DNA from: Bdellovibrionales bacterium
GTDB taxonomy: Bacteria; Bdellovibrionota; Bdellovibrionia; Bdellovibrionales; UBA1609
Assembly: GCA_965219095.1 (NCBI GenBank)
Contig: CBDCMT010000001.1
Location: forward strand, 1,312,001-1,376,000
Reading direction: 5' to 3'
DNA length: 64,000 nucleotides
The first letter of the stretch is position 1; the number at the start of each line of letters is the position of its first letter. The position numbers and the translations under genes are program-made. The notes beneath the pieces are model-generated. The model saw only the letters and a program-made list of their open reading frames with translations, was not told the DNA's origin and did no database searches. Shown piece by piece: positions 24,653-36,295 of the stretch.

Positions 24653-26185
24653 GTAACTGCTCACCTACATTGTTCAGTTATCCCTAACTTTAGACCTGTT
24701 TTAAGATAAAAGTCTTGCTCTTACAGATTTTCTTTTAAATACTTTTTTCAAATGACAATAAATAAGACCTCCATCAGAAATGAGATTGAAAATATAAGAA
24801 GTGACTTTGATAAGCTTGCAAAGAAAGGTTCTGTGCCTACTGAGATTTCTGTGATTGTTGAATCTCTCTTTAAGGTTGTGAACATTCTGATTGTTGTGTT
24901 TTTAGAAAAACAGGTTCGAAAAAATTCCAGCAACAGCGGTCTTCCTCCTTCGCAAGATTTTAGTCGTCAAGGGAATCGTAATAAGAAAGCTAGTGGGAGT
25001 CAAAAAAAGGGCTCTAGACTTGATAACAGTAAAGATACAAACAGTGAGGAGACTGTCTCTCCCTCAGAGTGTTCTCAGTGTGGGATGTGTTTAAAGACAG
25101 CAGAGGTAAAAAGCCTTGAGAAGCGTAAAAAGATTGATATTTTTTATGAAATTCAGACCCATACTGTAACTTCTGAAGTTAAGGATTGTCCCTCATGTGG
25201 AGCTAGAAATAAAGGTCAATTCCCTAAAGGTATGAGTGGTCCTCTTCAGTATGGTATAGGCATTAGAGCTTCCATCATCAATTTCATTATAGTTCAGATG
25301 CTGTCTTTTAGAGCGTGTTGGGGAACATTACATGGGGCTTATAGGTCGAATGATTTCTCCTGCAGTTATGTTGAGATACATTGCTGAATTAGGAGAGTTT
25401 CTTAAAAGTTGGGAAGAGCAGATGAAAGAAAAGATACTTGAATCAGAGGTCATTCATGTTGATGAGACCTCTATGAGGGTTAAGGGTAAAAACTACTGGA
25501 TTCATACTTATAGTTCAGGAGAATTAGTCTTGCAGTTTCTCCACCTTTCAGGTGGAAAGGAAGCCATAAAAGATATTGGTCTCTTGGATAGATATGCAGG
25601 AGTGCTTGTGCATGATTGTTGGAGTCCTTACTTTTGTTATGATAAGATAACTCATGCTTTGTGTGTGGCTCACCTTTTGAGAGAGCTTAAATTTATAGAA
25701 GAAAGCAATGGATTCAAATGGGCTATAAATCTCAAAAAACTTCTTAAAGAGACTGTGGAGTTAGTTCATAAAAAAGAGTCAAGAGTTCTGACTCAAAAAG
25801 AGTACGAAACTCTTCAGAGAAGGTATAGGAGTATTCTTACAAAAGGCTTAAAAGAGCTTCCAGAATTTCCTAAGAAAAATGGCAAGAAAGGACGAATAAA
25901 GCATACACAAGCTCAAAACCTTTGGCTGCGATTTAAAAAGTATGAAGCAGAAATACTGTGCTTTGCTAAAAGAAAGAACGTAGATCCTACTAATAACAGA
26001 GCTGAAAGAGATCTAAGAATGACTAAAGTGAAAAAGAAAGTGTCAGGGTGTTTCAGAACAGAAGAAATGGCGAAATATTTTTGTCGTATTACCAGCTATG
26101 TTAAAACAATGAGAAATAAAGGGTATTCTTCTTTAGAAGCCATCTCTATGGCTTTAAATAAAAACTTACGAGAGTGAGCAGTTAC
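24653..26185 (+). mobile_element. IS66-family element (single-ORF ISBst12-like), frameshifted, copy 1
   Basis: IR GTAACTGCTCAC / GTGAGCAGTTAC; KNSSNSGLPPS, CxxC pairs, HVDET, HDCW, C.AHLLREL, TNNRAERDLR; ORFs 24752-25387 and 25332-26177. Confidence 0.93.
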
Positions 26186-26463: not shown

Positions 26464-27534
26464 TTATTTTCTTGCACAACTGTAATTTATAGTATAGGAG
26501 CCAGGATTAAGATGTGTTTCAAAAGTGATCTTGTCTTTATCTTGATTCAAAGTAAATTTGACTTGAGGATTAGGCTTGATTTCAATATCATCTTTAAAGT
26601 CACCATTGTCGTTGACATCTACAGACGAACATTCTAGAAAGATCTTTCTTGTAAGATCCTTTATAGACTCTGTAATCCCATCTAAAACTGTTGTGTAATC
26701 AAGACTACAAATATTTAGAATTTTCCCTGGAAGAATACCGTTTATAGGATCATTTGTATTTGATAACATTTCATAAAATCTTCCTTTCGCTGTTGTGTTT
26801 CTGCAAGATTCTTGAGAGGGGCTAACAATAGAATGAAACTGAAAAACTTTACTGTTTCCAAGAATAGCAACTTTTCTACTGATAAATTTTTGAACCAAAG
26901 AGGGAGATCCGTTAGATTCATCATTATCTGATATAAGAATGGAAATAAAATGAGCGTCTAGTCTTAAAAGATCATTTTGTGGGTATCTATCTTTATTCTC
27001 AAGAAAATTAATTAATGACTTTATACCTTGGTGTTCAGAAAATGGCTTAACAGATAAAATGGTCTGCTCTAGTATTTCTTGTTTTTTTCTATCAGAATAA
27101 GAATCTTGGTTCTTTAAAACGTATTTTTTAAAGTTTGATTCATTCCAAATTAAAGGCGTCATATTATAATTATTATATGCACCATTTGTAGACTGAATAG
27201 CAATCCTCCAATCTATGTTGTCTGCATTGAGTTTTTGAATGAATATGTTGATTCTATTAGATAAATGTTTTCTTTCATTCCGCATAGAACCCGAAGCATC
27301 AATGATAAATAAAAAATCAACAGGAACGGTTTCTTTGATCGTAAAGCTTTTTATTTTTTCTACAAAATCATGAGTGGCTTGAAGATCAAGTTCGACCCTT
27401 GTTGTATTTTCTGCCTTATCGTCATTTCTTTGCCCAAAATTGGTTTCAGAACATGAATTAAATAAAAAGGGTAAAGGAATGGATAAGATGATAAGAAAAC
27501 TTATGAAAATCTTTCTTATATGAATCTTTTTCAT
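26464..27534 (-). CDS. vWA-domain putative lipoprotein
   Basis: Signal peptide ending FNSC; MIDAS motif FIIDASGSM; ILISDND. Confidence 0.8.
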   Translation of the reverse strand: MKKIHIRKIFISFLIILSIPLPFLFNSCSETNFGQRNDDKAENTTRVELDLQATHDFVEKIKSFTIKETVPVDFLFIIDASGSMRNERKHLSNRINIFIQKLNADNIDWRIAIQSTNGAYNNYNMTPLIWNESNFKKYVLKNQDSYSDRKKQEILEQTILSVKPFSEHQGIKSLINFLENKDRYPQNDLLRLDAHFISILISDNDESNGSPSLVQKFISRKVAILGNSKVFQFHSIVSPSQESCRNTTAKGRFYEMLSNTNDPINGILPGKILNICSLDYTTVLDGITESIKDLTRKIFLECSSVDVNDNGDFKDDIEIKPNPQVKFTLNQDKDKITFETHLNPGSYTINYSCARK

Positions 27535-27609
27535 ATCTTCTTTTTCGACAGAAATGTCTCAAACCTTTAGTCTAAACCTTGTGTTTGTTTCTTTATCTTT
27601 GTTCCAGCT

Positions 27610-28045
27610 ATGGAGATGCGTCCTATTCCAACACGCACCAGTCCCATCAAGACCAGCTCCTAATGACCGTTTTTGATTCGACTATCCGAGACCTTAATCC
27701 ACCTTTTTTAGAAGACAGATCATCTCATGGTTTTATTCCTTGTTTATCAGGTTCTATCCGACTAACGAGCTTTTTTTTAACTCACCGAAAAGTGATCTGA
27801 GTTTCCTGATAAACCGAACGATCTAAATCATCACTGTTGCTTGCCATCCTCTTCGGCATTTTTTTACTTTTCTTTAGAGGTTGTTTTATTTTTTTGTTTT
27901 TTTGTCATATCTTTTTTAAGTTTTTTGTCTCATCTTTATTTCTATTTCTATCACTCAGCTATCCGTGTCTACAGCAGGAGGATTATGTCACCATCTTACC
28001 TTCTGCCCACATCCCATCTGGACTTCATTAACTTATACATTCAGT
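27610..28045 (-). ncRNA. Candidate bridge/seek RNA region in the IS110 right end
   Basis: Non-coding and locally GC-richer, with several stems and three CGGATAG motifs; function inferred from IS110 biology. Confidence 0.5.
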
Positions 28046-28544
28046 TGTCGAGCCCGAAGCTCATGGATTAAATACCTCCTTAACATCTCACACCCACTTC
28101 TCGTAATTGAACCTAACCTCTTCATCTCTCCACTTGAAAATTCCCTAGGAATTAAACCTAAATAACTTCCCCACTTATGAGCATCCGGAAAACGAGACAT
28201 TTCATCAAGAACTGCTATTAACCCGAGTTTCGACTTTTTTCAGGGCTAAAGGCTCTAGCTAATATAAACAAATACCTCAGACTTTTGTAAGATTTTCTTG
28301 AAAAAGCAACTTACAAGAAAAAACACCTTGAGAGTTATAAAAAAACATACAAGGAGGTCTAAGATGTTTAATTCTAATTATATCATATCAATTTATGTTC
28401 TTGTCGATGATTTTTTAACCCCTCTCATACAGCAGCATCCAGAACTGGTTTGCTAAAAATAAAGGAGGTTTTTCTTGTGCTATGTCTCCCAGCGAAATTG
28501 TCACTCTTTATCTTACTTTTCCAAAGTTCTGGCTTTAGGAATTT

Positions 28545-30065
28545 GCCTCCTCAAAAGAATCTGTGGGTTCCCGGAGGTTCTGGCAGTTTTCCAAGGTTAT
28601 GATATAAGGCGATTTTTATAGCTTTAGAGGTTCTAAAGCCGTAAGATTTTCTCATAGTGAGTTTTACTTTGTTGTTTAAACCCTCTACAATCCCTGAGGA
28701 GAAGGTTTTTTTAGCCTTGAAGTAATTAAGAATAAGTAGCTTATGTCTTCGTATGGTTTTTGCTTCTCTTTTCATAGGTTCAATTTTTGAAAGCATGACT
28801 CGTCTCGTCCAACTGTCTATAAATTTACCAGCCCAAGTTGGTGAAACATAGGTCCATAACTGTCGGAAGTCTTCTTTTAAAAAATAACAGCGGATACTTT
28901 TTAAATTGTACTGTATTAAATGCCTTAATTTTACTTTTTCATAAGATTTTAAATTTTCTGCATTTTTTAACAAGGGCCATCTAGCTTTTGTTAAAAGGGG
29001 TTCATACCCATCTTCTTTCATTTTTTTGTGTTCTGAAGCTCTCACTTCGTCTAAAGCCTTATTGAGTCTTGCTACGATATGAAACCGATCTAATATATTC
29101 AAAGCTTGACTTGCCCTTTCCTTTATTACTTTTAAATAGGGCTTCCACATATCAGAACACACAAACTGTATATCTTTTGACTTCTCTCCTAGTAAATCAA
29201 AAAACTTGTTGAAACTCTCCTCTGTTCTTTTTTCTCCTATCCATAGCAAACGAACACTTTCTTTGCTTATTTCATAGACTAAGGTGAGATACTGATGGTT
29301 CTTTTTCCATTGTATTTCATCTACACCTATAGCTTGTATTCCCTTTAAAACCCTTTGTTTTAAACCATATTCTACGACCCATTCTACCAAAGCATAGACC
29401 TGATTCCAACTGACATGAAACTTACAAGAAACCTCTTTCCAAGACAGGTGACGACACCAGTCAGCTAAGTACTTCATGTAAAAAATTGTTAGGTTTTTCT
29501 TCCCATCTGCCCAAGGTAAATACTCAACTTTTACTCCACAGCAAGAACAATTAACTCTTCTTACAAAATAAACAAAAAACACCCTGTAACTTAAAATAGG
29601 AAGGGATTCAAAGTCCCGTGATGATTTACTGCTGTCATACACTGAACAGGGCTTCTTACAAACACTACAAAAAGCTTGGCCATTTTTACGAGCCTTAATA
29701 GGAACATTAATTGACTTTCTATCTTTTGAAAAATAAATGTCTCCGTATACAAAAGACTTCCATCTTAAACAATCATTTAGTATAGTCTTCAAAAGCATCT
29801 CTTCCCTCCTTTTTTTTTTTTTTTGAATAACATTTTAAGGCATCTGGGAAGTAGGTGCTTCTTTTTTAAAATTTTAATGTAACACAGCAAATAAAAGCAA
29901 ATAAAATGAATGTTTTTGAGTTCAATCACCGGAGGTGATAGAGGCCAGTAAGGGCCTCAAAGAACTCAAAAATACAAGATAGAATGTCTTACTCTTACTT
30001 TGATTAATATGAGCTCTTTTGGGGGATTTCTACTACTTTTCACCCACAGATTCCCGGGAGGAGCC
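28545..30065 (-). mobile_element. ISL3 element (copy 2), 8-bp TSD AGGAATTT
   Basis: Same termini as copy 1; TSD 28537-28544 = 30066-30073. Confidence 0.95.
28551..29798 (-). CDS. ISL3 transposase
   Basis: 415-aa ORF with ISL3 motifs. Confidence 0.95.
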   Translation of the reverse strand: MLLKTILNDCLRWKSFVYGDIYFSKDRKSINVPIKARKNGQAFCSVCKKPCSVYDSSKSSRDFESLPILSYRVFFVYFVRRVNCSCCGVKVEYLPWADGKKNLTIFYMKYLADWCRHLSWKEVSCKFHVSWNQVYALVEWVVEYGLKQRVLKGIQAIGVDEIQWKKNHQYLTLVYEISKESVRLLWIGEKRTEESFNKFFDLLGEKSKDIQFVCSDMWKPYLKVIKERASQALNILDRFHIVARLNKALDEVRASEHKKMKEDGYEPLLTKARWPLLKNAENLKSYEKVKLRHLIQYNLKSIRCYFLKEDFRQLWTYVSPTWAGKFIDSWTRRVMLSKIEPMKREAKTIRRHKLLILNYFKAKKTFSSGIVEGLNNKVKLTMRKSYGFRTSKAIKIALYHNLGKLPEPPGTHRFF

Positions 30066-30848
30066 AGGAATTTTAAAGCCTTTTACCAGTTTGCAAAAGT
30101 CTATCTTAAATCTTATTTTCCTAAAATGTTGTCTTACTCCCGATTTGTGAACATCAAAAAAGACATGGCTTTTTTGATGTTTCTTTTCTTGACAAGCCTT
30201 ATGAGTAAAACCACCGGCATATCATTTATTGATTCCACATCGATTTTTCTTCAAAAATAAAAGAATAGGACAAAATAAGGTGTTTCAAAAGTTAGCTAAA
30301 AAGAGGCAAAAGTAGTATGGGCTGGTTCTTCGGATTTAAACTCCATATTGTTATCAATCACCTAGGAGAGCTTTTAAGTTTTACCTTAACTCCGGGAAAT
30401 GTAGATGATCGAAAGCTAAGTTATGGATTTATAGTAAAGGGCTGATGGGAAAACTCTTTGGGGACAGAGGTTATATTTCATCAGATCTTTTTAAACTTCT
30501 TTTAAAGAAGGGAGTTAAGCTTATTACAAACGTCAAATTAAATATGGAGAATAAATTGATTCCCTTATTTGACAAGTTGATGTTGAAAAAACGTTCTGTT
30601 GTGGAGGTTAGTGATTGGAGTGTTAAAAGGAGAGTTTCATCTTGAGCATTCTCGCCATCGTAGCCCACAAAACTTTGTCATCAATCTTTTAGGTACTCTC
30701 ATCTCTTACTTGCTTAAAACCTAAAAAACCCTCCATTCAACTTAAAACTCAAAACAGGAGCTTCTGAACAATATATAAAAGTCGAAACTCGGGTTATTAA
30801 TAAAATTGAAGTCAAAGACTGAACTTCCCCCAAAAAAGTGGACAGTTT

Positions 30849-31715
30849 TTATGTTCTTAAAGCCCTCCTTTGTTTAAATTCTTTTGGGCTCATGTATTTC
30901 AAGGAAGAATGCATTCTTACCTTGTTATACCAATCCATGTAAATTGCAATTTTTTTTTCCAACTCTTCCTTTGTTGTACAGTCTTTGTATTCCAGTTCAT
31001 CCTTCAACGTATGGAAAAAGCTCTCCACAAACGCATTATCATAACAATTTCCTTTCCTAGACATAGATTGCTTGAGGCCAAAGAATTTCAATTCTTTTCT
31101 AAACCCTTCACAACAATATTGAACCCCTTGATCCGAGTGGATTATCAAGCCCTCTAAGTTCCCAGAAACAGATTGGACTGCGGCTCTCAGAGCCTGTTTT
31201 GAATGAACCCCGTCCAAGCTCTCACAGAGCTTCCAAGACTTAATCTCTCGATTATAGACATCTAAAAATACAACCAAATACAGAAATTTATCTCTAAAAG
31301 GAATATAGGTTAAATCCGAACACCATACCTGGTTTTCTTTTCCTGCTTGGCTCTGTCCTGTCTTAAACAACCGAGGAGACTTAATCATGAGAGGGTTATT
31401 CTTTGTTGTTCTAGGAACATAGGGTTTTTTCTGACGGGCACTGAGATTCTTTAGTTTCATAATTCGAGCTACTTTGTTTTCTCCAGCACTCACTCCGCAA
31501 CGCTTTAATTCCCTATACACCCTGGGGGAACCATAACAGCCTTTATTTTTTTTAAAAATAGATTCTATGTTTTTCTCCAGATTTTTATCCTTTTCAAGCT
31601 TTCCCCTGGTTTTTAAAAAACTATAAAAACCAGAACGAGATCCTCTTAATAATTCGCAAATGCGAAGCACTGGATGCCCTTTCTCTTTTACATAAAACAT
31701 AGCCTTAAATCTCAT
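30849..31715 (-). CDS. IS3 transposase OrfB
   Basis: Same protein as 8267-9133. Confidence 0.95.
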   Translation of the reverse strand: MRFKAMFYVKEKGHPVLRICELLRGSRSGFYSFLKTRGKLEKDKNLEKNIESIFKKNKGCYGSPRVYRELKRCGVSAGENKVARIMKLKNLSARQKKPYVPRTTKNNPLMIKSPRLFKTGQSQAGKENQVWCSDLTYIPFRDKFLYLVVFLDVYNREIKSWKLCESLDGVHSKQALRAAVQSVSGNLEGLIIHSDQGVQYCCEGFRKELKFFGLKQSMSRKGNCYDNAFVESFFHTLKDELEYKDCTTKEELEKKIAIYMDWYNKVRMHSSLKYMSPKEFKQRRALRT

Positions 31716-32017
31716 TTCAGGATTTCCTTTGAAAAAAAAGCCGCTGCCTCTTTCAATATACCTACACTCCGCCTCTCATAGACCAGCTCCTTTTTTAACC
31801 TCTTTATTTCCTCCAATGCCGAAGCCAAGTCATGGGAAGCTTGTCTTTCTACTTCAGGCTTTAGAAAACGCTTCCAAGAGCTTATCACTTGGAAATTTCT
31901 CAGTCCTAGCTTCTCTGAGGCTTCCTTTGCACCTATTTCCTCTGCCAATTCAATGGCTTGCTTTTTAAACTCTTCCGAGTACTGTTTTACTTTTTCCATT
32001 CTTTCTTTTACCTCCAT
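31712..32017 (-). CDS. IS3 OrfA
   Basis: Same protein as 9130-9435. Confidence 0.9.
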   Translation of the reverse strand: MEVKERMEKVKQYSEEFKKQAIELAEEIGAKEASEKLGLRNFQVISSWKRFLKPEVERQASHDLASALEEIKRLKKELVYERRSVGILKEAAAFFSKEILK

Positions 32018-32209
32018 TTTATGGAGACTTTAAGAGAAAATTGACTGTCCGCAGAAACAGGGGAAGTTCAGCTTACCTCACTTCTTCCTAAATACTCTGA
32101 TAAGGTTTCTATAAGTCTAGCAGTGTTAATCTTTAACCTCTTTACATACTCGCCCCCCTTGTCTTTTATACACAGAGAAGATGTCTCCTTATGGAAATCA
32201 ATCCCTATA

Positions 32210-33347
32210 TAGTGCTTCCGTTTAGGTTTTCAGTTTCCTAAGATAGAGAAGTTATCAGTTATCAAAGTTTCTAATTTAGATCTGTGTTTTCGTATTCCTC
32301 TAAAAAATTGACTTAAACTTCCCTTGAAATCGTCATAGTTTTCATAATATCGATTCGCCGTGACCTCTTTTTTCATAAACTTCCAAAGCCTTTCTATAGG
32401 ATTTAAATTCGGTGAGTACGGAGGAAGATAAATAAGCTTTATATTCAACTCTTTCGCTAACTTCTTGACAGACTTCGATCTATTGTATCCGGCCCCATCT
32501 AAGATAAGATGAATCTCTTTTTCATCGGAATACTTCTTAATGAATATGATAGAGCATATCACATAGAAAAACTTCGTTAACTGTCTTATAACTCCTGACT
32601 ACCGTCTTCAAACTATTGATCTCAATAGCTCCACAAACATTCACTCTTTTTCTCCAGCCTGAATTGGTCTTCACTTCAAACTTCTTACCCTCTCTTATCC
32701 AACCATATGAAATCGTAGGGCCCCACTCAGGATGTGTGGAATCAGCAAAGTAAACAGGACCGTCTTTCTTCTTAATTCTCTTGTATTTACGCACAAACTT
32801 TTTCTGCTCTTCTTTCTTTGCCTTACCCGGTATCGCTGTGGCTTTTTTATAAGAAAAACCAAGGCGATGGAGAAGATCAATTACACCACTTGTTAAAGTA
32901 CGTAACACCAAAATTCTCCTCAATGAACTGAATAAGGGCCTGTGATGACGGAAAAATTCTTTTCTCTAATTCCTTTAAAAGCATTTTCTCCTCTTTCTTA
33001 GTTAAAAAGGACCTTTTAGGGTTATAATTGTCGTTGATTAAGCACTCTATCCCACCTTTGTTATAACGATCTCTACAGGCTCTTATCGTGCCCTCATCAA
33101 TGAAAAGAAAGCAGGCAATATCTTTACACAACTTACCTTTATCTAAATGGAGGATTGTCATAATCCTTTTTACGTATTTAAGATTTTTCTCTAGAGATAG
33201 TTCATAGAGTAAATCTTTTCGCTCTTTTTTTGATAGAAACCCTGACATATGAAACTATTTTTAAAAATAAATGACTTTTTATCAAGGCCTTAGAATAAAA
33301 ACTAGACCTCAACTCAAAAAAAACGGAAAACCTAAACGGAAGCACTA
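32210..33347 (-). mobile_element. IS630-family type A, full length, doubly frameshifted; TA TSD
   Basis: IR TAGTGCTTCCGTTTAGGTTTTC; three consecutive ORFs 32877-33248, 32537-32923, 32230-32562. Confidence 0.93.
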
Positions 33348-33473
33348 TATAAAGAATCTGATTGCTATTGATGGGCTCTTTGTCTTTGACGACCTTTGAA
33401 TTATTTTTTGTTACTTGTTTCATGTTATTTTTCCTCCTTTAGTTGATTTTTGGCTTCTTTTTTGTTACTTTTT

Positions 33474-33605
33474 TTTAGCGTCTACCTCCTCAAACTATGA
33501 GTTCTTAGGCTCGATTTATTTATGAATTTTTCCTTCGGGAAAAAATTCGTTCTTTTAACTTAGGTTAAACAACCTAATTGTGCTTGGGGAGGTTAGACGG
33601 ATCTC
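33474..33605. ncRNA. Structured IS110 left-end region (outer stem plus three hairpins)
   Basis: CGTCTACCTCC / GGAGGTTAGACG outer stem; hairpins at 33499-33512, 33524-33548 and 33560-33577. Confidence 0.45.
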
Positions 33606-33619
33606 CATAGCTAGAAAAC

Positions 33620-33649
33620 TGTCCACTTTTTTTTGGGGGGGAGAGATCA
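33620..33649 (+). repeat. Solo degenerate IS3 terminal IR
   Basis: CTGTCCACTTTTTTTTGGGGGGGAGAGATCA resembles the reverse complement of 8238-8263. Confidence 0.7.
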
Positions 33650-33747
33650 AAATTGTTTTTTTCAAAGGAAAAATAGTGTTTCATAATAAGACAAAAAAGA
33701 ATTTAAGAACTAAAAGAAGAAAGCCGATAAAGGAGTAAGAGGTTTTT

Positions 33748-34629
33748 ATGAAAGAAGTGATAAAAAAAATCTGTATTTTTTTAGTTTCTTTATCCCTAGC
33801 CCTTCAGGTCTCTTTTAAAGCTCAAGCTAGTGGGAAAAAAGTGGCTTTATTTACTGCAGGAAGTTTTATTGCGTTTTCTGTGTTTACAGGAAAATTAGGA
33901 GTAAAGAAAATTAGTAAGGCTCTATCTTCCAATCCTGTAAACTATGGACTATTAATTATAGGTTACCTTCTTATACGTCAATCAGCAAGGGATAAAAAGA
34001 ATTCGGATAAAAGTAATGATGCCGTTAACATACTTGCATCTCCTGACGATGTAATCGGAGTGGGTAATGATCCTATAAGAAATAAAGCTTTAACAGAAAT
34101 AGCAAATAACAAAAGGAAATTAGAAGCTCTTTTAGAGAAAAATAAAGACAAACTTTCTAAACTTCCCTTTAAATATAATTCTAAAACGAACTCCCTTCAG
34201 TATAGAGATGGTTCTCCTATAGAGGCTAATATTGGTGACCTTAAAAAATTAGGTTTATCAGAAGAAGATGCAAAAAAAGTTCTTAAAGATTTAGAAAAAA
34301 ACTTCCACCTTGCAGCACAGTTAAAAGAACAGTTTTTAAAAAACATACCAAGAACAACAGCAAGCACAGAGAAAAAGGATGACATTATTACTGAAAATGA
34401 AGAAGAAAGTCTATCTCAGATGCTAAAAAATTTAAGCAAAAAAGAAGAGAAAAAAGTAGATGTAAACTCTCTTTATAAAAATATTAATGGAGAAAGAATT
34501 GGGCTTTCTGAGGGCGATATTTTCGAGATGGTTCATAAAATTTACAAAAAACGTCTTGATAACGAAGAATTTTTTCTCGAAGAGAATGAAAAAAAAGGCT
34601 CCTCCCGGGAATCTGTGGGTAAAAAGTAG
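33748..34629 (+). CDS. Hypothetical secreted/membrane protein; last 10 aa from the ISL3 left end
   Basis: Signal peptide (AQA), TM segments, C-terminal IGLSEGDIFEMVHKIY reminiscent of Bdellovibrio-specific proteins. Confidence 0.75.
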   Translation: MKEVIKKICIFLVSLSLALQVSFKAQASGKKVALFTAGSFIAFSVFTGKLGVKKISKALSSNPVNYGLLIIGYLLIRQSARDKKNSDKSNDAVNILASPDDVIGVGNDPIRNKALTEIANNKRKLEALLEKNKDKLSKLPFKYNSKTNSLQYRDGSPIEANIGDLKKLGLSEEDAKKVLKDLEKNFHLAAQLKEQFLKNIPRTTASTEKKDDIITENEEESLSQMLKNLSKKEEKKVDVNSLYKNINGERIGLSEGDIFEMVHKIYKKRLDNEEFFLEENEKKGSSRESVGKK

Positions 34630-34762: not shown

Positions 34763-36295
34763 GTAACTGCTCACTCTCGTAAGTTTTTATTTAAAGCCAT
34801 AGAGATGGTTTCTAAAGAAGAATACCCTCTATTTCTCATTGTTTTAACATAGCTGGTAATGCGACAAAAATATTTCGCCATTTCTTCTGTTCTGAAACAC
34901 CCTGACACTTTCTTTTTCACCTTAGTCATTCTTAGATCTCTTTCAGCTCTGTTATTAGTAGGATCTACGTTCTTTCTTTTAGCAAAACACAGTATTTCTG
35001 CTTCATACTTTTTAAATCGCAGCCAAAGGTTTTGAGCTTGTGTATGCTTTATTCGTCCTTTCTTGCCATTTTTCTTAGGAAATTCTGGAAGCTCTTTTAA
35101 GCCTTTTGTAAGAATACTCCTATACCTTCTCTGAAGAGTTTCGTACTCTTTTTGAGTCAGAACTCTTGACTCTTTTTTATGAACTAACTCCACAGTCTCT
35201 TTAAGAAGTTTTTTGAGATTTGTAGCCCATTTGAATCCATTGCTTTCTTCTATAAATTTAAGCTCTCTCAAAAGGTGAGCCACACACAAAGCATGAGTTA
35301 TCTTATCATAACAAAAGTAAGGACTCCAACAATCATGCACAAGCACTCCTGCATATCTATCCAAGAGACCAATATCTTTTATGGCTTCCTTTCCACCTGA
35401 AAGGTGGAGAAACTGCAAGACTAATTCTCCTGAACTATAAGTATGAATCCAGTAGTTTTTACCCTTAACCCTCATAGAGGTCTCATCAACATGAATGACC
35501 TCTGATTCAAGTATCTTTTCTTTCATCTGCTCTTCCCAACTTTTAAGAAACTCTCCTAATTCAGCAATGTATCTCAACATAACTGCAGGAGAAATCATTC
35601 GACCTATAAGCCCCATGTAATGTTCCCCAACACGCTCTAAAAGACAGCATCTGAACTATAATGAAATTGATGATGGAAGCTCTAATGCCTATACCATACT
35701 GAAGAGGACCACTCATACCTTTAGGGAATTGACCTTTATTTCTAGCTCCACATGAGGGACAATCCTTAACTTCAGAAGTTACAGTATGGGTCTGAATTTC
35801 ATAAAAAATATCAATCTTTTTACGCTTCTCAAGGCTTTTTACCTCTGCTGTCTTTAAACACATCCCACACTGAGAACACTCTGAGGGAGAGACAGTCTCC
35901 TCACTGTTTGTATCTTTACTGTTATCAAGTCTAGAGCCCTTTTTCTGACTCCCACTAGCTTTCTTATTACGATTCCCTTGACGACTAAAATCTTGCGAAG
36001 GAGGAAGACCGCTGTTGCTGGAATTTTTTCGAACCTGTTTTTCTAAAAGCACAGCAATCAGAATGTTCACAACCTTAAAGAGAGATTCAACAATCACAGA
36101 AATCTCAGTAGGCACAGAACCTTTCTTTGCAAACTTATCAAAGTCACTTCTTATATTTTCAATCTCATTTCTGATGGAGGTCTTATTTATTGTCATTTGA
36201 AAAAAGTATTTAAAAGAAAATCTGTAAGAGCAAGACTTTTATCTTAAAACAGGTCTAAAGTTAAGGATAACTGAACAATGTAGGTGAGCAGTTAC
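34763..36295 (-). mobile_element. IS66-family element, frameshifted, copy 2
   Basis: Near-identical to 24653-26185; ORFs 35561-36196 and 34771-35616. Confidence 0.93.

Follow-up and report, generated by a model that had tools for sequence, protein, structure and literature searches.

Bridge recombinases are new tools for genome editing, and for the IS1111 group both the recognition of the element ends and excision are unsettled in the literature. The donor nucleotides may sit in a multiloop of the bridge RNAs of this group, as put forward in PMC11208160. Excision substrates of IS621 were reported to bind across both loops of the RNA (PMC11208160; PMC13626964), and engineered split bridge RNAs were reported to be functional (10.1101/2025.05.14.653916; PMC13604230 (review)). 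In ISfinder, 26 of over 350 entries are already listed with two long regions, according to Siddiquee et al. (PMC11187229), and a bridge-RNA survey has been reported with 86 diverse covariance models (10.64898/2026.10.21.760802). Here we describe an IS110-family element hidden on the minus strand between positions 27604 and 33612 of a 64,000-nucleotide stretch of DNA (the window, G000:C2:1312001-1376000) from the genome of a Bdellovibrionales bacterium (3.1 Mb, 34% GC, rich in insertion sequences). The best overall explanation, to which we give a probability of about 0.65 on comparison of sequences, is that it is the relic of an IS1111-group element with a leader-type left end and a right end in which the guide is duplicated and the work is divided between two units. 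No description of a natural doubled or divided bridge RNA was found in the literature searched, although the survey just cited or Supplementary Table 5 of PMC11208160 may cover the clade; a literature match to "two bridge RNAs" concerns engineered guides.

The recombinase gene was reassembled by removal of younger insertions, as the initial annotation of this DNA had proposed. Removal of an IS630-family insertion (32210..33347, minus strand) with one copy of its TA duplication joins 33423-33350 to 32209-32071 in 71 stop-free codons, confirming the claimed N-terminal frame. The product shares 41 of 68 residues with positions 1-68 of P0003, an intact relative among the 37 proteins retrieved with the C-terminal piece as query, and the start codon at 33423 is consistent with the N-termini of P0002 and P0003. 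Near the other end, 30818-30800 joined to 28220-28063 with a single TATTA kept gives 59 stop-free codons, 52 of which encode the residue found in P0003 (residues 243-301). The initial annotation had rightly removed an IS982-type element here, but its coordinates (30818-30795 + 28220-28063) keep both TATTA copies (28216-28220 and 30795-30799) and are out of frame by 2. Pfam Transposase_20 was found on 28060-28221 with E 1.2e-12, and DEDD_Tnp_IS110 on 32071-32208 with E 0.026 only. The proposal of a hidden IS110-family recombinase was borne out by these identities and by the profile search it had suggested, and the element is assigned to the IS1111 group. Its remains on the minus strand are codons 1-25 (33350..33423), codons ~25-71 with the first catalytic Asp, ending just short of the catalytic Glu (32071..32209), six codons in the gap between IS3 and IS982 (30800..30818), and a piece of the C-terminal domain with the catalytic Ser motif (28063..28220).

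Two large parts of the gene have been lost. Residues ~69-242 (~174 codons), including three of the four DEDD residues and the coiled coil, are missing where an IS3-family element without target duplication is inserted (30820..32070, minus strand), so that the noted coincidence of IS3 with the loss of the middle holds. The gene was also thought to end at RRYLIH; relatives, however, run ~72 residues further, and residues ~302-373 were removed by a second deletion that had been missed. The LIH codons pass straight into a hairpin placed ~100 nt inside the right end of the relatives. An 8-nt word is common to the gene and this right-end hairpin at the 28062 joint, which suggests loss of the C-terminus by a microhomology deletion fusing the gene to the interior of the right end. 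An unrelated copy (L047:2458-2590) is likewise deleted from the gene interior into the corresponding hairpin (M1, see below). The catalytic Asp and Ser retained in the window are unaccompanied by the E, D and D of the tetrad. A tblastn search of the genome with P0001 and P0002 matched the two window pieces alone, and the genome therefore contains no intact recombinase of this family. With three of four DEDD residues and its C-terminus lost, and no intact copy found in the genome, the window element cannot move. Elsewhere in the genome six more right-end fragments, of two subtypes, and zero left-end fragments were found. Short-read contigs from one study, possibly of the source sample, span the 28062 joint, the IS982 joint and the joint of the left end with an IS3 fragment, with 0 differences; no contig joint skipping IS630, IS3 or IS982 was found at this element, an absence that proves nothing.

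Relatives were obtained as 33 loci, three from named Bdellovibrionota records of metagenome-assembled genomes (MAGs) and 30 from metagenome contigs. Genome searches matched the family in 5 of 384 genomes of the host's order and 5 of 401 of its phylum. No relative was found among viral contigs by protein search, and 139 of 145 examined pattern-match loci had no tblastn match and are thus due to chance. Searching the DNA of 40 relatives with the window's right end returned low-complexity matches only, and 27000-34200 had no Rfam match with E of 1 or less. The left ends of the relatives, from TGG core to start codon, measure 98-158 nt (median 114.5; 30 distinct elements, after removal of two duplicate loci and of loci cut before the end, the closest proteins P0001-P0003 not included), and one of the 30 is at least 150 nt long. 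In 24 of 27 relatives the right end, taken from stop codon to core, spans 484-1001 nt (median 549) and is roughly double the canonical length; in three short-ended sisters it is 280, 318 and 335 nt. Canonical plasmid neighbours of ~30% identity have left ends of 62-87 nt and right ends of 204-270 nt in five of six loci by a simple repeat search; the sixth (L095) has no credible repeat and was excluded from the control range. The initial annotation had regarded the element as a candidate distinct subtype with two long ends, and had named the end lengths of intact relatives as decisive; these relatives have one long end, which contradicts it. In the extra-long right ends of L065 (1001 nt; L065:940-1940), L080 (862 nt) and L070 (706 nt) the extra sequence, possibly a passenger or further inserted DNA, lies between the stop codon and the first of the two units described below; a second element copy follows the L065 element. 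The core region of the short-ended sisters L079, L067 and L062 is different, and conservation among them reaches further into the right flank, which suggests stricter targeting by one-unit elements.

In the relatives, alignment of the right end revealed four loops (M1 to M4), each a strand, a hairpin and a strand, arranged in two units of similar size (83-128 and 80-107 nt between anchors) with a linker of 80-193 nt, mostly A-rich, in 24 relatives. The window retains both units on the minus strand. Unit 1 (27949..28070; covariance model R2, 21.4 bits, E 0.006), the 5' part of which was cut by the deletion, comprises the M1 hairpin (28062-28050), the M1 3' strand (28048-28042) and the M2 3' strand (27962-27956), which repeats the right end and core of the element exactly. 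After an A-rich linker (27819..27948) follows unit 2 (27666..27818; covariance model R1, 76.7 bits), with the M3 5' strand (27794-27787) as right-target guide, the M4 5' strand (27736-27728) as left-end guide and the M4 3' strand (27685-27679). Both models were built without the window sequence, and their E-values are rough. Four pairs each of the M2 and M4 stems are kept in 24 of 24 elements, with two-sided changes. In M1 the outer stem shows many of them, yet is broken in 3-7 rows per pair, and for M3 a stem was predicted by RNAalifold in one run and none in another. A single large loop closed by a long-range stem between M2 3' and M3 5' was considered and rejected, since the local stems carry compensatory changes. 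In the short-ended L060 and L062, R1 and R2 fall on one and the same place in the single unit; R2, the model of unit 1, also matches unit 2 of six loci, though weakly (E 0.02-0.4). These matches show the two units to be homologous, which points to origin by tandem duplication. The short form may be ancestral or a loss, the tree being poorly resolved there. A promoter and terminator scan of 27500-28250 gave one promoter-like site against 1.6 expected and no terminator.

Covariation between these loops and the DNA was scanned in 24 elements, with RNA positions within 14 nt of seven anchors and, on the DNA side, ten bases per flank together with each end's variable bases, every pair being scored in both senses. 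This amounts to 7739 tests of an RNA position against a DNA position, for which 150 shuffles set the family-wise 95% line at z 4.39. Above this line, left-end position +2 covaries with M4 5' (20/22, expected 8.4), right-end position 4 with both M2 3' and M4 3' (24/24 each, expected 12.1), right-flank position +2 with M3 5' (20/24, expected 9.0) and right-end position 5 with M2 3' (23/24, expected 17.2); five of the six best cells of the scan are in the expected register. Two cells fall just short of the line: left end +3 with M4 5' (20/22) and, without an explanation, the base that follows the M3 stem with left flank -2 (16/21). Tracking of the left end or the right flank by M1 5' was unsupported (8/22 against 5.5 and 10/24 against 8.2 expected). 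For right end and core, M2 3' scores 6.8 of 7 matching positions, while M2 5' complements the core in 0/24; for core and left end, M4 5' scores 7.1 of 9, M4 3' matches at 5 of 7 but never at the core TG, and M3 3', a degenerate partner strand, matches the left flank at 1.1 of 7. The 3' strands end in the core TG in 0/24 elements for unit 2, in 18/24 for M1 and in 23/24 for M2. Across the relatives the right-end guide is complete in unit 1 only, and unit 2 holds those for the left end and for the target flank on the right. In the short-ended sisters a single loop was found, by inspection, to hold both donor strands. Right-end 5, left-end +2 and right-flank +2 have each changed several times. 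Two elements found later, L100 and L103, fit all right-end, left-end and left-flank -2 positions; at right flank +2 L103 fits and L100 does so by G-U wobble only. The second sites L055 and L083 fit right flank +2, L083 missing left flank -2, and L047 fits the left-end guide. Where sister pairs have unlike M3 guides, three of four show the predicted difference in target. Two elements (L056 and L059) had been excluded from an earlier covariation analysis and received a manual anchor in the present scan.

A number of observations weigh against the divided guide. Left end +3 with the M1 stem lies above the line at 4/22 and has no mechanistic reading, while the tracking of left flank -2 by M1 3', which has the expected register, stays below it (14/21 against 7.7, z 3.0). 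The 24 loci that were tested also served for placing the anchors, by eye, and that of M1 5' is off by one base in three rows. Kin share states, few of the changes are independent, and the one at right-end position 4 is maybe one or two events in a poorly resolved tree; the elements found later are closely related to those from which the models were built. Sister pairs with the same M3 guide also differ in target in three of seven cases. In the window itself the left-end triplet misfits the M4 guide, and the right flank fits its guide at two bases only. Finally, long structured DNA had been claimed for both ends of the window element; this held for the left end, which folds better than shuffles (z -3.2), and did not for the right end as a whole, which folds no better than shuffles (z -0.5).

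The left end itself resembles a leader. The inverted repeats of 17 bp that had been noted (27606-27622 and 33596-33612) do match at 16 of 17 positions, but the family repeat is only the inner 14 bp, 13 of which match in the window (33596..33609, minus strand, and 27609-27622). The remaining three bases are of uncertain origin; the outer left bases adjoin a 35-bp end fragment of the genome's IS3 (33615..33649, minus strand), where the outer TGG core is missing. On the right, the repeat is followed by two variable bases and the TGG core (27604..27622, minus strand together), and five further right-end relics in this genome have the identical boundary. Both element ends are fixed by two copies in G297, and the relatives have TGG+3+T on the left and 3 bp on the right, if the repeat is taken to start at ATGG. 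Between 33479 and 33612 (minus strand) a multibranch fold is predicted, closed by pairing of the inner repeat arm with a Shine-Dalgarno-like segment, and the same closing helix before the start codon is predicted in 21 of 22 relatives. In the window the helix ends at 33479, 137 nt from the expected element end, and is followed by a 55-nt A-rich tail with a second Shine-Dalgarno sequence (33424..33478, minus strand). This tail, unpaired in the fold, looks like a 54-nt stretch of the start region duplicated in frame, although an identity of 25/42 is weak in A-rich DNA. The 192-nt left end of the window, longer than all 30 measured relatives, is the family leader plus this tail. On folding, and for its function on analogy, the left end is probably a translation-control leader hiding the ribosome-binding site, which fits the post-transcriptional control reported for ISPpu9. 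An unanchored word test for guides in the left ends was negative; the same test recovered only one of four right-end guides and was not used as evidence.

In the mechanism proposed here, the ends would join into a circle with the order right repeat, 3 bp, 7 bp, left repeat, as in ISEc11. By analogy with IS1111 and IS621 biology (PMC11208160; PMC13626964), the junction would drive transcription, the right-end RNA would be processed, and the DEDD/Ser recombinase loaded with this RNA would recombine the circle at the TGG core, in a short target for which IS1111 biology and the flanks suggest the consensus CTGGA. Both units would load recombinase and share the guiding between them: unit 1 would have kept the strand for reading the right end with the core, and probably that for the left flank of the target, and unit 2 those for reading the left end and the right flank of the target. 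The covariation of four strands with the DNA is shown; that the RNAs of both units are used in one reaction has about even odds. Reading of one site by strands from two loops has a precedent in IS621 excision, which by analogy might extend to two RNAs. A stronger version, in which the clade uses two separate bridge RNAs, one with left (bottom-strand) and one with right (top-strand) guides, every site being read by both, is tentative and rather improbable. If true, the left junction of the inserted element would be read directly by M1 paired with M4 and the right junction by M2 paired with M3, which could be of use in excision. Two units with divided guide strands allow a direct strand-by-strand test, with the one-unit sisters as a control. 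The value for such work is in the intact relatives (e.g. L045, L046, L050, L071, L073 and L100), the window copy being a relic only.

The principal rival of the divided guide is that unit 2 alone is the working bridge RNA and that unit 1 is a regulator or decoy binding the recombinase and the right end, or serves excision only. Unit 2 has the right-target guide, the left-end guide and four bases of the right-end guide, and M4 3' also tracks the right end, so that this unit might by itself suffice as a donor loop; the three short-ended sisters get by with a single unit, and truncated single-loop RNAs are reported to have separate roles in CazIS110-1 (10.1101/2025.10.25.684509). The 3' strands of unit 2, however, never match the core, which those of M1 and M2 mostly do, and we consider this explanation unlikely. 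It is improbable to a much greater degree that the right-end motifs are DNA-level repeats, such as an old internal right end or protein-binding boxes, rather than RNA guides. M2 3' is indeed a same-strand copy of the terminal sequence, and ISPpu9 is reported to have been lengthened by a hitch-hiking module with its own ends (PMC12288879). M2, however, lacks the inverted-repeat arm of a true end and its adjacent stem has compensatory changes, the same motif is the donor guide in the single-unit sisters, and the 5' strands of M3 and M4 track flank and left end as complements.

Two further explanations concern the window copy more directly. Its 5' and 3' halves could come from different copies, joined by recombination between two IS3 insertions: IS3 lacks a target duplication here, six other right-end fragments, of two subtypes, occur in the genome, and the left-end triplet misfits the M4 guide. 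Against such an origin, the halves share strand and gene order, their repeats match at 13 of 14 positions and their closest proteins are the same, while the misfitting triplet sits at the IS3-fragment junction and may be foreign. We consider a two-copy origin unlikely, and it leaves the family-level result untouched. Least probable of all is a separate subtype in which both ends of the element would carry long functional RNAs. The window's left end is long and structured, and the closest proteins are outside the measured set; its first 137 nt, however, reproduce the family leader helix, the remainder is the unstructured tail with the second ribosome-binding site, and neither RNA model matches the left end. 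Of these readings we therefore prefer an IS1111-group relic with a leader and a duplicated, divided guide.

A TA duplication flanks IS630 here, as in 38 of 38 full genomic copies, and of the full IS3 copies 13 of 28 have a target duplication of 3-4 bp and 10 of 28 have none. The IS982-type insertion (28221..30794, plus strand; DDE_Tnp_1_3) has the TATTA duplication and is itself interrupted by an ISL3 element with an 8-bp duplication (28545..30065, minus strand); the nesting of IS630, IS3 and IS982 had been described correctly, and ISL3 had gone unmentioned. Short IS3 end fragments are common genome-wide, ~14 of them being palindromic minis of two IS3 ends back to back. A family targeting IS3 ends was considered and ruled out, as six right flanks in the genome are unlike IS3 sequence. 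Three right-end relics (G000:C2:1590057-1590237, C2:16598-16766 and C1:318050-318224) are cut at nearly one spot, the A-rich loop of the M3 hairpin, and a different insertion sequence end adjoins each. A second, unrelated IS110-family element occurs at G000:C2:919970-921120 and ~16 more places (L016-L030), both translated copies being frameshifted. The region is flanked by two inverted IS66-type elements (24752-26177 and 34771-36196), with the transposase split into two frames at the same place. The flanking gene 26464-27534 (minus strand) encodes a probable lipoprotein of 356 aa with a weak vWA match, and the flanking open reading frame 33748-34629 (plus strand; 293 aa, function unassigned) is cut by an ISL3 end.

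Membership of the IS110 family is indicated by five relatives that score 222-244 bits on NF033542, IS110 family RNA-guided transposase (cut-off 140), and by the first Asp of the DEDD RuvC-like domain and the catalytic Ser motif of the Transposase_20 domain in the window pieces. As in the IS1111 group, the inverted repeats are sub-terminal and, at 14 bp, within the range of 7-17 bp, with like repeats in the relatives; the extensions are 7 bp left and 3 bp right without true target duplication (the outer left bases of the window being lost); the long non-coding region is downstream and the short one upstream; and the right-end guides match target and donor with the top-strand complement first, spread here over two units. 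Placement of the protein in IS1111 is by best match, to the ISAzs32 family (30%) and IS4321 (24%). A canonical single bridge RNA with two loops was not found in the 24 long-ended relatives, which have two units, four loops and one degenerate strand each in M2 and M3; the donor loop of the three short-ended sisters is of the canonical form.

Compared to IS621 and ISCro4 (PDB 8wt6, 9t56), the catalytic residues are homologous (E 5e-16), and four guide strands are known there (LTG, RTG, LDG and RDG). Those elements are of the IS110 group, however, with the RNA in the left end and one two-loop RNA in which each loop reads both strands. ISAzs32-family transposases, among the best plasmid matches, have the bridge RNA in the right end as well (PMC11208160), but the plasmid neighbours have the shorter right ends given above and neither unit model matches them. 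The seekRNA systems of ISEc11, ISKpn4, ISPa11 and ISPst6 are alike in their DEDD/Ser recombinase, sub-terminal repeats extended by 7 bp and 3 bp, long downstream non-coding region and, in each loop, a top-strand complement 5' of the bottom-strand match, as reported in PMC11187229. They differ in having one long RNA of 148-172 nt per element (PMC11187229), against ~550 nt and two units here, where the target consensus is only about CTGGA and the proteins are 335-376 aa. ISPpu9 with ssr9/MITEPpu9 is comparable in its structured, translation-controlling leader and extra downstream RNA module (PMC12288879). The ssr9 module is reported to have its own ends and to be dispensable (PMC12288879), whereas the extra unit described here lacks ends of its own and is homologous to the bridge RNA.

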